NCBI RefSeq assembly: GCF_051903065.1
Contig: NZ_CP178439.1
DNA from: Escherichia coli
GTDB lineage: Bacteria; Pseudomonadota; Gammaproteobacteria; Enterobacterales; Enterobacteriaceae
Reading direction: 5' to 3' (one strand)
Length of the DNA stretch: 64,000 nt
Shown in pieces: positions 12,001-24,000 of this stretch. Made by a program: the position numbers. The stretch's first letter is position 1, and every line of letters begins with the position of its first letter.

Positions 12001-15000
12001 TATCTATCTCTCAAACTTAGCTTTCTGCCTCTTGATTGAGTTGGTTTTGATTCTTGTTGTTTAGAGCTGCCATCATCAAATGAAATAGAATTACTAGGCT
12101 CTTCTTGCTCCCCTAAAACACCAAGTTCAATAATCGAGTCATCATCGTCATCATCATCGTCTTGGCTCAAATCCTCAGAGACATCATCTAGCTCACTTTC
12201 AGAAAAAGTAAATCTTACAGCAAAACTAGTTTGTCCTTGCTTAACACCATGTGGCTTATCTTTTTCATAGTCATATAAGTCAGGATTAAATTTTCCTTCA
12301 AAAAAAACCCTCATAGCTTTTAATAGGTTTGTTTTACCACTGTTGTTTTGCCCAACAATGGTTAATCCATTAAAGTTATCAGAGGATATCTCCCCTGAAA
12401 TAGACCTATACTGAGAAACTTTAAATGATACTATTTCCATTTTTCTTCCTACGATAGAATATTGCTCGGATTATCGACATTTTTTCCCAAGGCTTTAACT
12501 GTCTTTCGCTACTTGGATAAATGGCTCTTCCTCCACTGTTCTGCTTTATTTTCGCCAGAAAGCCCACCATGCATGTTGTTTGTCCTGAAGTGCTGCTTTA
12601 TCCTGAAGCAATTCAGCACTCACTGCCCCCTGAAGCACAGAAACGGCGTTTCTCGCGGCATTGCGACAGGAATCAATAACCTCTGGTTCGTTGGGCTTTC
12701 TGAGCAGGATAAATTGCGATACTTTGGACTGAGTATCAAAAGCATAGATTCGCAATTCAGGGGAGGATGTCAGGCTTACAATATTATGCAACCGCATATA
12801 ATTGGTGTAGTCCTTGCTACTTGGATCACATGATTCATAAAGATATTTCTGCATTAGCGTTTGCGATGAAGAAAGAAAATCTATATAGCGGTCAGTTTTT
12901 TTATCTATATCCCGCAGTCGCTGAGCTATTGCATCTTTTCTTATTTCGTGGCAGTGTGTTAATTTCAGTGTAATCCAGCCACCAACAATGGTGATTAATG
13001 CACCCAGCCCAATTTTAACGGCATTATCAGCCACATCTACCCACTCAGTTGCCATCTGTTACGTGTTCTTCCTGTGATGATCATGGTCGCTAGTATAATT
13101 CTCCGGCTGACTGGACATACAGCATTTTCTGTCCAAGATTAATAACCTCGAACTGCAACACAATGCCGCAGATGATGCAAAGGGGGAGCCCGCAGAATTC
13201 GGAAAAAATCGTACGCTAAGGTTTTCCGGGCATCCGTAAGGGCCGAAACTTCCCGTCTTCCAGTCTGCGGCTCTGCCGCCAGACGTAATCGCCGGTTAGG
13301 TTGATGTGCTCCCAGCCCAGCGGCGACAGGAATTGCAGCAGCTCGCCGTCCACCGGCTTGCCGGCCTCGACCAACCCCTGGGTGGCGCGTTCCAGGTACA
13401 CCGTGTTCCACAGCACGATAGCCGCCGTCACCAGGTTGAGGCCGCTGGCCCGGTAGCGCTGCTGCTCGAAGCTCCGATCCCTGATTTCCCCAAGGCGGTT
13501 GAAGAACACCGCCCTGGCCAGCGAGTTGCGCGCCTCACCTTTGTTCAGGCCGGCATGCACGCGGCGGCGCAGTTCAACACTTTGCAGCCAGTCCAGGATG
13601 AACAGCGTGCGCTCGATCCGGCCCAGCTCGCGCAGGGCCACGGCCAGTCCGTTCTGGCGCGGGTAGCTGCCGAGCTTGCGCAGCATCAGCGAGGCGGTGA
13701 CGGTGCCCTGCTTGATCGAGCTGGCCAGGCGCAGGATGTCGTCCCAGTGGGCACGCACGTGCTTGATGTTCAGGGTGCCGCCGATCAGCGGGCGCAACGT
13801 CGGGTAGGCTTGCACGCCCTGCGGCACGTACAGCTTGGTTTCGCCGAGGTCGCGGATGCGCGGCGCGAAGCGGAAGCCTAGCAGGTGCATCAGGGCAAAG
13901 ACGTGATCGGTGAAGCCGGCCGTGTCGGTGTAGTGCTCCTCGATCCGCAGGTCGGACTCGTGGTACAGCAGGCCGTCGAGCACATAGGTGGAATCGCGGA
14001 CGCCGACATTCACCACGCGGGTGCTGAACGGGGCACTGTTGCAAATAGTCGGTGGTGATAAACTTATCATCCCCTTTTGCTGATGGAGCTGCACATGAAC
14101 CCATTCAAAGGCCGGCATTTTCAGCGTGACATCATTCTGTGGGCCGTACGCTGGTACTGCAAATACGGCATCAGTTACCGTGAGCTGCAGGAGATGCTGG
14201 CTGAACGCGGAGTGAATGTCGATCACTCCACGATTTACCGCTGGGTTCAGCGTTATGCGCCTGAAATGGAAAAACGGCTGCGCTGGTACTGGCGTAACCC
14301 TTCCGATCTTTGCCCGTGGCACATGGATGAAACCTACGTGAAGGTCAATGGCCGCTGGGCGTATCTGTACCGGGCCGTCGACAGCCGGGGCCGCACTGTC
14401 GATTTTTATCTCTCCTCCCGTCGTAACAGCAAAGCTGCATACCGGTTTCTGGGTAAAATCCTCAACAACGTGAAGAAGTGGCAGATCCCGCGATTCATCA
14501 ACACGGATAAAGCGCCCGCCTATGGTCGCGCGCTTGCTCTGCTCAAACGCGAAGGCCGGTGCCCGTCTGACGTTGAACACCGACAGATTAAGTACCGGAA
14601 CAACGTGATTGAATGCGATCATGGCAAACTGAAACGGATAATCGGCGCCACGCTGGGATTTAAATCCATGAAGACGGCTTACGCCACCATCAAAGGTATT
14701 GAGGTGATGCGTGCACTACGCAAAGGCCAGGCCTCAGCATTTTATTATGGTGATCCCCTGGGCGAAATGCGCCTGGTAAGCAGAGTTTTTGAAATGTAAG
14801 GCCTTTGAATAAGACAAAAGGCTGCCTCATCGCTAACTTTGCAACAGTGCCGCGCGACGAGCAGCAGCACCAGGAGCAGAAGCACGTCGAGAAAAAGCAA
14901 CAGCAGATCGAGCAGCGCCCACGGCGGGCCGCTCGCATCGGATAAGTCGAAAAATCCGGCTAAAGTGGCCGAGCTGCACATCAGGCCGCGCGGTTTTCCT

Positions 15001-21000: not shown

Positions 21001-24000
21001 GCTGCGCTTATGGCAGAGCAGGGAAAGGAATTGCCGGGCTATGTGCAACGGGAATTTGAAGAATTTCTCCAAAGCCCGCGACGCAGCGCCGGCAGGCAGA
21101 GCAAGTAGAGGGCAGCGCCTGCAATCCATGCCCACCCGTTCCACGTTGTTATAGAAGCCGCATAGATCGCCGTGAAGAGGAGGGGTCCGACGATCGAGGT
21201 CAGGCTGGTGAGCGCCGCCAGTGAGCCTTGCAGCTGCCCCTGACGTTCCTCATCCACCTGCCTGGACAACATTGCTTGCAGCGCCGGCATTCCGATGCCA
21301 CCCGAAGCAAGCAGGACGGCACTGTTGCAAATAGTCGGTGGTGATAAACTTATCATCCCCTTTTGCTGATGGAGCTGCACATGAACCCATTCAAAGGCCG
21401 GCATTTTCAGCGTGACATCATTCTGTGGGCCGTACGCTGGTACTGCAAATACGGCATCAGTTACCGTGAGCTGCAGGAGATGCTGGCTGAACGCGGAGTG
21501 AATGTCGATCACTCCACGATTTACCGCTGGGTTCAGCGTTATGCGCCTGAAATGGAAAAACGGCTGCGCTGGTACTGGCGTAACCCTTCCGATCTTTGCC
21601 CGTGGCACATGGATGAAACCTACGTGAAGGTCAATGGCCGCTGGGCGTATCTGTACCGGGCCGTCGACAGCCGGGGCCGCACTGTCGATTTTTATCTCTC
21701 CTCCCGTCGTAACAGCAAAGCTGCATACCGGTTTCTGGGTAAAATCCTCAACAACGTGAAGAAGTGGCAGATCCCGCGATTCATCAACACGGATAAAGCG
21801 CCCGCCTATGGTCGCGCGCTTGCTCTGCTCAAACGCGAAGGCCGGTGCCCGTCTGACGTTGAACACCGACAGATTAAGTACCGGAACAACGTGATTGAAT
21901 GCGATCATGGCAAACTGAAACGGATAATCAACGCCACGCTGGGATTTAAATCCATGAAGACGGCTTACGCCACCATCAAAGGTATTGAGGTGATGCGTGC
22001 ACTACGCAAAGGCCAGGCCTCAGCATTTTATTATGGTGATCCCCTGGGCGAAATGCGCCTGGTAAGCAGAGTTTTTGAAATGTAAGGCCTTTGAATAAGA
22101 CAAAAGGCTGCCTCATCGCTAACTTTGCAACAGTGCCTGATGAAGCCGGGTGTGCCGGTGATCCCAAGCGCTTCGCCCAGCTGCATGTTGCCGGAGATCA
22201 CGTTTTCATATCGGTTTTTTTCCCTGTCAGAAAACGTGCTGTTAAACCCTGACTTATCCACCACAGTATTAAAGTCGCTGAGTTCGAATTTGCGTTGAGA
22301 GGTCATGAAGGTATGAGCCACAGCCATCAGGTTGTTGTGGTATTTACGATAGGCTTCAGCACCGAAATTCTGATAGACGTGCAGACCCGTAGCGGCCCCC
22401 ATGGCAGATACAGGTTTTGAACCGGCAAAAATCGGGAATTCTTTAAAGAAGAATTTTACATCTTTGCTCTGATTCATTACCGATTCAACAACAGGTGTAA
22501 CCCGCATGCAGTAAATACACTGATAGTCGAAGAACTCGATTACCGCGACGTCGGCGTCATCCGGGCCGATGTTTGGCGTCTCCTTGGTATCCAGCAGAGC
22601 TGGCGCATATGGAATTATTCGTTCCACTGAGGCACTTACGTTCTGATTTTCCAGCGCCTTACCTGCTTCCACTAAATAATGGGGATTTTTTACCAGGTAA
22701 GTAGCGGCAATTTTGCCAATTTCTTCCTCACTGAGCACCTTCGGTTTAAAATAAGTTGCCGCGATTAACGCCGAGGCAGCGGTAGCAATTACCGCAGAAA
22801 TTAAAATCGTGGCCATCGGTTTTAAATAAAATTCTTTAGACATAGCTACCTTTATGCTTTTCAGCCTGTTAGTTATTAACCTGCGATGGATTATACTGGC
22901 CCGGTAAATCGGAATTATTCGTGAAACAATGCTTTTTGGAGATTAAAGGATGATTAGGCAGGGCTTTATACTCACAACCGCAATGCTTTTGAGTGGTTGT
23001 GGATATCATTTCGCAAACCAGGTAGATGCGTACGATCTAATGCCTCGTCCTGTTACAAATAAAAGGTTTCAGATAGTCCCTCCGGACGAAAGTATTCAGT
23101 CCAGAATGTTTTCAGGCCGTTTTGCTGATGGATTAGCAAAAAAAGGAGTCATTATTTCCACTCACCAGCCAGATTATGTGCTCAGGTTCCGAATGAGCAG
23201 CTCACAGGAGAACATGCAGTATAGCGAGCAGCTTCTTACTGGGGTGACAGGCTACGTTGTAGATAAAAAGACAACGAGAACTGACAAGCATGGCGAATCG
23301 CATACTGACTATGACTACAGGCCGGTCGATGGGGTAATAGGCACTGAGACGATGTCGCAGATGCACTATATGCGACAGCTGGATGTCGAGGTATACCCGT
23401 CAGCGAAAGGAGCAAAGCAGGTTCTGAAAGTGAGTATGCAAAGCAATGCACCTGTGCCGTCAGACAGCATTGCTTATTCAGCAATGATCGACGCCTTTAC
23501 TGATAAATTTGATGCGCCGCTGCGTTCCGGAAATTATGTTGCAGTGATCCCCTGGAACTGAAAGCAGACGGCGGGAAGAGAATGTTCAAAAGTGACTTTT
23601 GGACACGCACATAAACGTGGCTATCGCCCTCCCCCATTAAAATCATAAAGTCGGTAAAGATCGCCCATCGTGATGGAATTGGGCTTATTAATGATTAGAT
23701 ACTGTAACTGTTCTTTATGTTGAGTACTGGCGGCTGCATTCATAAGCACTTCCAGGTAGAACTTGTAGCCTATGCTTCGCTCTGAATACATATACTGGAA
23801 CTGCATCAGTAAAATGCCTGACATAACATACAACAGCAGCAGACTGAGTAACACAGTGCTATCAGGCTGTTCCAGTGCCATACTGACATACCCTGAACCC
23901 AGAATGCACAGAAGCCAACCCGTCATTAGAGCAGGCACCCTACGACTCAGACGTTCATAACAACGTTTTATTACGGGATCCCGGAGATACTTTTTGTCAG

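Follow-up and report, generated by a model that had tools for sequence, protein, structure and literature searches.

The stretch of DNA analyzed here (the window) comprises 64,000 nucleotides of the Escherichia coli contig NZ_CP178439.1 (assembly GCF_051903065.1), and the element in question is a module at 14032-22137 in which the resistance gene floR lies between two copies of the insertion sequence IS26. Sequence comparison with plasmids indicated that the window covers the multidrug resistance (MDR) region of an IncHI2 plasmid and, joined to it, the transfer region. From position 22138 onward, the sequence is IncHI2 backbone with a dsbA-family gene, traG, trhH, mobH, and traD, and it is 99.997% identical over 30.9 kb to plasmids such as pR18.0877_278k (NZ_CP037959.1). 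At the opposite end, positions 1-1025 constitute the end of a class 1 integron with arr-2 and a fragment of cmlA. Database comparisons covered PLSDB (72,556 plasmids), 5,426 complete E. coli RefSeq genomes, and 100,044 species-representative genomes. The junction between the cmlA fragment and IS26 was common to many IncHI2 plasmids, with 305 records showing at least 80% coverage of a query made of positions 1-1100.

The 14-bp terminal repeat of IS26 (GGCACTGTTGCAAA) occurs nine times in the window, compared with 0.03 occurrences expected by chance. Terminal repeats, repeat analysis, and direct inspection delimited four complete 820-bp copies (copies 1, 2, 4, and 5), the number given in an original prediction made from the sequence of the window, and one fragment (copy 3). 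Copy 1 (1026-1845, plus strand) adjoins the cmlA fragment and forms the outer left boundary of a 21-kb IS26 array. Copy 2 (3026-3845, minus strand) is inverted relative to copies 1 and 4, and with them it brackets a 1.2-kb segment carrying aphA1 (1846-3025) and a 10.2-kb segment designated X (3846-14031). The module itself is bounded on the left by copy 4 (14032-14851) and on the right by copy 5 (21318-22137); both are on the plus strand, in direct orientation with each other, as originally predicted, and with copy 1, and 6,466 bp lie between them. Perfect 14-bp terminal inverted repeats were present at both ends of copy 4 (14032/14851) and of copy 5 (21318/22137), and the transposase gene tnp26 is an intact open reading frame (ORF) in each (14095-14799 and 21381-22085). 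The 234-aa Tnp26 of copy 4 matched the IS6-family transposase model NF033587 with 275.6 bits (cut-off, 125) and also PF13610.

Copies 1, 2, and 4 are identical in sequence, and copy 4 is a standard IS26. Copy 5 differs from copy 4 only by a GG to AA change at IS26 positions 613-614 (window 21930-21931), which leads to the substitution G184N in Tnp26 and identifies this copy as IS26-v1; the original prediction had treated all copies as equal. The same variant protein (WP_001067858.1) is annotated at the copy 5 position in related plasmids (siblings), and in every sibling examined IS26-v1 is located on the tet(A) side of the floR segment. As summarized in PMC9019673, which cites Pong et al. 2019, the G184N substitution has been reported to raise transposase activity. 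Copy 3 (7111-7411, plus strand) had been described as internally truncated; it is instead a terminal fragment, the 301 bp of which are 100% identical to positions 1-301 of the other copies and include the left inverted repeat. This fragment, located inside segment X with the glutathione synthase side on one flank and the DUF1158/ramA side on the other, was present in all siblings examined and is probably the trace of an old fusion of DNA from two sources.

The 8-bp sequences flanking the complete copies (left/right) are CTCGCTCT/TTTCACCC for copy 1, ATAAATCG/CTTGAATC for copy 2, CTGAACGG/GCGCGACG for copy 4, and AGCAGGAC/TGATGAAG for copy 5. No 8-bp target-site duplication was detected among the IS26 copies in the window when all 45 flank pairs were compared in direct and reverse-complement form, the best match being 5 of 8 positions; re-inspection thus bore out the earlier statement that no IS26 in the window has such a duplication. 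The same all-flank comparison revealed, within the window, no duplication whose two halves of the pair had been moved apart by inversion or by recombination between two IS26 copies, and there was no 8-bp duplication around the module as a whole, as its outer flanks CTGAACGG and TGATGAAG are unmatched.

The gene calls previously made in the module all held when they were compared with protein profiles and with other plasmids. The 6,466-bp passenger (14852-21317) begins with a segment (14852-16481, plus strand) that is colinear with the ARI-B island of pEC3-1/2a and is regarded in the literature as a GIsul2 remnant (PMC7652850); it encodes a serine recombinase (15431-16168, plus strand; PF00239 Resolvase and HTH_7) and a small hypothetical ORF without a family match (16165-16389, plus strand). 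This segment is followed by ISCR2 (ISVsa3), an IS91-like rolling-circle element (16482-18328, plus strand), the left limit of which was set at the start of a 307-bp repeat and the right limit at the end of identity to an ISCR2-sul2 copy in pR18.0877_278k. The product of its transposase gene (16600-18093) matched PF04986 Y2_Tnp and PF14319, in keeping with an HUH-type Y2 transposase with an N-terminal zinc-binding domain; it reached 670.8 bits against NF052416 (ISCR clade Ia), below the curated cut-off of 925, and is annotated in siblings as an ISVsa3 family transposase (WP_001120888.1). Downstream lie the C-terminal part of a truncated relaxase gene, the "virD2" remnant (18124-19008, plus strand; positions 435-651 of 654 in the RlxS model and 155-374 of 375 in DUF3363), and the full-length floR gene (19225-20439, plus strand), the 404-aa florfenicol/chloramphenicol efflux product of which matched NF000219 over positions 1-404 of 404 with 895.9 bits (cut-off, 700). 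The passenger continues with the N-terminal part of a truncated lysR-family gene (20467-20772, plus strand; 101 aa), which matched PF00126 HTH_1 only and covers approximately positions 5-86 of LysR-type models of about 300 positions. It ends with a 5' fragment of ISCR2 (20766-21072, plus strand), annotated as an incomplete IS91 family transposase in the sibling pAPEC-O117H42-B, and a 3' fragment of tet(A) (21067-21317, minus strand), the 251 bp of which are 100% identical to positions 922-1172 of the 1,197-nt tet(A) of database record L002 and are cut by IS26-v1.

The ISCR2 fragment is a 307-bp direct repeat, 100% identical to 16482-16788, and the two repeats, 4,284 bp apart from start to start, bracket ISCR2, the relaxase remnant, floR, and the lysR remnant. 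Many database matches both start and stop at the limits of these repeats (approximately 16482-21075), including plasmids of 4.6-4.8 kb, which shows that an older, discrete ISCR2-floR unit is nested in the IS26 module.

The origin of the passenger was addressed by comparing the module and its two junctions with those of other plasmids. The module was matched at approximately 100% identity by hundreds of plasmids, most of which, typically IncC, carry IS26 on the left side only, and the identity to many IncC plasmids extended over 7,286 bp. In the common form of ARI-B, as found in pEC3-1/2a and described together with its IS26-mediated backbone deletion (PMC7652850), the order is IS26, a hypothetical ORF, the recombinase, a hypothetical ORF, ISCR2, the relaxase remnant, floR, the lysR remnant, complete tet(A), tetR, strB, strA, and sul2. 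The module follows this order colinearly from IS26 through the ISCR2 fragment into tet(A), at approximately 100% identity and with the exact IS26 junction included; it differs from the ARI-B of IncC plasmids in that tet(A) has been cut by IS26-v1, which leaves 251 bp of its 3' end, and in that the host is an IncHI2 rather than an IncC plasmid. On this comparison, the passenger is the leftmost 6.47 kb of what lies inside the IncC ARI-B island, ending in tet(A) where IS26-v1 cuts the gene.

The frequencies of the two junctions differed considerably. With 600-bp junction queries, a coverage of at least 80%, and up to 5,000 records per search, the left junction, between IS26 and GCGCGACG, was found in at least 1,649 PLSDB records, whereas the right junction, between the tet(A) fragment and IS26, was found in approximately 79, an upper estimate that includes at least one non-contiguous match in two pieces. 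A single query with 150-bp IS26 ends was confounded, since the second IS26 piece was joined from the same upstream copy in IncC plasmids. These counts indicate that the left boundary is old and inherited. The right boundary is the younger of the two and occurs mainly on plasmids of IncHI2 size, apart from a 122-kb E. coli plasmid and an IncFIA/IncR plasmid that carries the module in scrambled form. The left junction of IS26 with the passenger was thus inherited from the ARI-B of IncC and not made in the present plasmid, and the right end was created when IS26-v1 came to lie inside tet(A). A second copy of window 14031-18328, 100% identical, was observed in pR18.0877_278k (152806-157103), where IS26, the hypothetical ORF, the recombinase, the hypothetical ORF, and ISCR2 are followed by sul2 and not by floR; this 4.3-kb repeat offers another target for recombination within IncHI2 plasmids.

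The original prediction had staked itself on variation among related plasmids, and inversions, deletions, absence of the floR segment at this site, and changed neighbors were all seen. The closest database record was pXJW9B277-HI2-N (NZ_CP068042.1), to which 1026-22138 is colinear at 100% identity; this plasmid shares with the window the orientation of segment X and both floR junctions, but it has an hns-family gene to the left of copy 1 and an IS26 fragment followed by IncN repA to the right of IS26-v1. Taking the orientation of X in these two sequences as the reference, X, which lies between the inverted copies 2 and 4, has the opposite orientation in p2017.02.01CC, pR18.0877_278k, and pPK5074-MCR1; in the last of these, the aphA1 segment, between the inverted copies 1 and 2, is reversed as well. 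Both thus behave as invertible segments. Two IS26-adjacent deletions were also observed, as p2017.02.01CC lacks the 114 bp adjoining copy 1 (window 1846-1959) and pPK5074-MCR1 (NZ_CP072803.1, near 177543-177546) lacks approximately 220 bp at the left end of the floR segment. In pPK5074-MCR1, moreover, an aadA8-lnu(F) segment takes the place of the floR segment after the X-side IS26, and the floR segment adjoins the cmlA fragment and its IS26 instead. The alternation of IS26 copies with segments along the array and the presence of a different segment after the same IS26 fit the incorporation of a translocatable unit; homologous recombination yields identical products. The sibling differences all map to IS26 ends.

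IS26-v1 was found with five different right-hand neighbors, among them a strA fragment or an IS26 fragment plus IncN repA in some siblings, a dfrA fragment plus intI1 on the 122-kb plasmid, which is not IncHI2-sized, and a truncated dsbA-family gene in the present window only; the tet(A) side was constant. A constant flank on one side and a variable one on the other are what adjacent rearrangement mediated by an IS would be expected to leave. In siblings, the bounded structure had at least two contexts on its left, and most contexts fall within one plasmid lineage. Tandem amplification of the module was considered for pTM-G17, which was flagged with two floR copies, and was rejected, as these are scrambled pieces of the same region on an IncFIA/IncR plasmid and do not form a tandem array. 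Within segment X, an Rfam match to the AgrB antisense RNA was observed at 9399-9486 (minus strand; 68.8 bits, gathering score 40), and siblings have a DinQ-like type I toxin gene annotated as dqlB at the corresponding place in the segment; the two are probably a toxin-antitoxin pair.

A pseudo-compound transposon is defined by two directly oriented IS26 copies around a resistance segment (PMC7986276, PMC7885326), and the module conforms to this definition, as the original prediction had proposed: the bounding copies are direct and the structure occurs in multiple sequence contexts. A flanking 8-bp duplication was absent. Such a duplication is expected only after formation of a copy-in cointegrate and its resolution and is not obligatory, and its absence is compatible with a pseudo-compound transposon, because targeted conservative and intramolecular events leave none (PMC7885326, PMC7986276). 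IS26 has been described to move by a copy-in route that produces cointegrates, with duplication of the IS and of 8 bp of the target, and by a far more frequent targeted conservative route between two existing IS26 copies, which produces no duplication (PMC7885326, PMC4894685); intramolecular copy-in, resulting in deletion or inversion, separates the two copies of the duplication (PMC7885326, PMC7986276). Direct IS26 copies can also recombine and so set free a circle that consists of the passenger and a single IS26 and is then taken up beside a further IS26.

Taking the boundaries, the origin of the passenger, and the variation among siblings together, we consider it highly probable that the module is an IS26 pseudo-compound transposon within the 21-kb IS26 array (1026-22137) of an IncHI2 MDR region, with a passenger derived from ARI-B and a history of IS26-driven rearrangement. 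In the course of this history, copy-in cointegrates or intramolecular deletions and inversions would have split the two copies of each 8-bp duplication, the targeted conservative reaction would have joined two IS26-bearing molecules at an IS26 end without duplication, and RecA recombination between the many identical copies would have flipped or excised segments. Repeated rounds of these reactions would leave every IS26 with unrelated flanks, as seen in the window. A 7,286-bp circle of the passenger and a single IS26 could exit through an exchange between copies 4 and 5 and re-enter next to any other IS26. We infer both the circularization of this unit and the share of the events that was catalyzed by the transposase as opposed to RecA. 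Accounting for the missing duplications by IS26 rearrangement instead of simple insertions, as had been done before, thus proved sound, but the best-documented events are inversions, not the deletions and cointegrate resolution that had been invoked.

The junction of IS26-v1 with the backbone appears, from the database comparisons, to be the only feature specific to the present plasmid. At 22137/22138, IS26-v1 cuts the dsbA-family gene 104 bp from its 3' end, so that the gene is 3'-truncated in the window (22138-22843, minus strand); its intact homologue lies at 187807-188616 of pR18.0877_278k, and window position 22138 corresponds to position 187911 inside that gene. This junction was not found in PLSDB or in the complete E. 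coli RefSeq genomes, nor in an exact scan of the 100,044 species-representative genomes for the 34-nt junction sequence. It would be the most recent event in the present plasmid, for which the best explanation is an intramolecular copy-in inversion with IS26-v1 as the acting element and TGATGAAG as the target (position 187911 of the reference plasmid); relative to pR18.0877_278k, the left part of the window would then derive from a prior inversion between copy 1 and an inverted IS26 beside cmlA. Alternatively, the IS26 on the cmlA side may have inverted into the dsbA-family gene, and the 20.3-kb block from aphA1 to floR may have been incorporated next to it later. Both routes predict a reciprocal inverted IS26 with the flank CTTCATCA, approximately 5.6 kb upstream of the start of the window, and they differ in the IS26 variant of that reciprocal copy and in the sequence on its other side. 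We propose, tentatively and at somewhat less than an even chance, that the reportedly more active G184N variant made the junction recently through an intramolecular copy-in inversion, in which a large arc of the plasmid was turned around and a thiol-disulfide oxidoreductase gene beside the transfer region was truncated; if so, the plasmid would be a new structural isomer, possibly with altered conjugation.

The invertible segments of the array lie between perfectly identical inverted IS26 copies, and their flips keep every junction, as would be predicted if all of the rearrangements were due to host RecA recombination between the 820-bp IS26 repeats, the transposase having no current role and the module being just DNA between repeats; the relocation of floR to the cmlA-side IS26 in pPK5074-MCR1 could likewise stem from recombination between copies. 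However, RecA recombination cannot create new junctions between IS26 and other DNA, and the dsbA junction, the adjacent deletions of 114 bp and approximately 220 bp, and the cut in tet(A) all need transposase-mediated events. In addition, the frequency reported for the targeted conservative reaction exceeds that of recombination by a factor of more than 1,000 (PMC7885326). An origin of all rearrangements from RecA recombination is thus improbable. Two IS copies flanking a resistance gene also superficially resemble a classical composite transposon of the Tn5/Tn10 type, inserted as a unit through its outer IS26 ends with a target duplication, but there is practically no chance that this applies here. 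The outer flanks CTGAACGG and TGATGAAG do not match and come from distant parts of the reference plasmid, the left one from segment X and the right one from a backbone gene approximately 80 kb away, which refutes such an insertion; furthermore, the IS26 family moves through cointegrates and is not known to form simple insertions directly (PMC7885326, PMC7986276).

The complete ISCR2 upstream of floR, its 307-bp direct-repeat fragment 4,284 bp away, and the database matches limited to the bounds of the ISCR2 repeats, including those in the 4.6-4.8 kb plasmids, would suit mobility of floR by rolling-circle transposition of ISCR2 or by recombination between the ISCR2 repeats, with IS26 being incidental. 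This would account for the first capture of floR, but not for the IS26-bounded structure or the missing duplications, and none of the sibling differences is located at an ISCR2 end, all of them being at IS26 ends; we therefore regard ISCR2 as an exceedingly unlikely basis of the mobility. An assembly artefact, in which the five IS26 copies within 22 kb were mis-joined and neither the IS26-v1|dsbA junction nor the orientation of X is real, also had to be weighed, as that junction occurs in no other record and repeats that exceed the length of short reads are notorious for causing mis-joins. Nevertheless, 1026-22138 is reproduced colinearly in the independent pXJW9B277-HI2-N, and the dsbA-family gene is cut cleanly at the exact IS26 terminus, as for a real transposition junction. 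A mis-join through IS26 would, moreover, require another IS26 beside the dsbA-family gene in the true molecule, which implies the same insertion. An artefact is accordingly very unlikely.

Several points weigh against our interpretation of the module as a pseudo-compound transposon shaped by IS26. Neither a circular unit nor transposase activity is demonstrable from a static sequence. In nearly all cases the complete bounded module had segment X as its neighbor, and its hosts were mostly plasmids of IncHI2 size, which makes independent movement of the exact 7.3-kb unit hypothetical; the mobile units may instead be larger blocks bounded by IS26. For the X and aphA1 inversions, RecA recombination could suffice without a contribution of the transposase. 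Finally, more than one order of events would lead to the dsbA junction, and the predicted reciprocal junction lies outside the window.

The module closely resembles the IS26 pseudo-compound transposons and translocatable units described previously, such as those of the Tn4352 type (Harmer, Moran and Hall 2014; PMC4894685; Harmer, Pong and Hall 2020; PMC7986276, PMC7885326), in its direct IS26 bounds, overlapping array, lack of flanking duplications, and variable neighbors; it differs from them in that its bounding copies are not the same (IS26 and IS26-v1) and in that it is known from sequence alone. The nearest described system is of the same IncHI2 lineage, namely pOYZ4 and its chromosomally integrated form in Salmonella (PMC9019673), which share with the window aph(3')-Ia, IS4321, a resolvase, ISVsa3-floR, IS26, and IS26-v1. 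In that study, no IS26 copy in pOYZ4 or in the integrated form had duplications; IS26-v1 with its G184N substitution, inversion units, and translocatable units were described; and a flank CGTCGCGC was recorded that is the reverse complement of the right flank of copy 4 (14852-14859). pOYZ4 differs from the window in that an lnu(F)-aadA segment comes after the IS26 beside segment X, and the IS26-v1|dsbA junction is not described there. Circular forms of other IS26 units have been detected by reverse PCR on related IncHI2 plasmids (PMC10673294); no paper reporting a circular intermediate of the exact floR unit was identified among the titles and abstracts searched. Because the same plasmid lineage has been dissected already (PMC9019673), we concluded that the module is real, correctly read, and already known, and that it confirms the current understanding without extending it.

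The arrangement is thus well described and widespread, and missing duplications are the normal signature of IS26 reshuffling. The window provides a clean example, in which floR from an IncC island has been captured between IS26 and the reportedly more active IS26-v1, and its practical value lies in annotation and in the epidemiological tracking of the floR module and of one plasmid-specific junction. Arrays of IS26 such as this one are the main route by which large Enterobacteriaceae plasmids, the IncHI2 plasmids with mcr-1 and blaCTX-M-55 among them, accumulate and reshuffle resistance genes.

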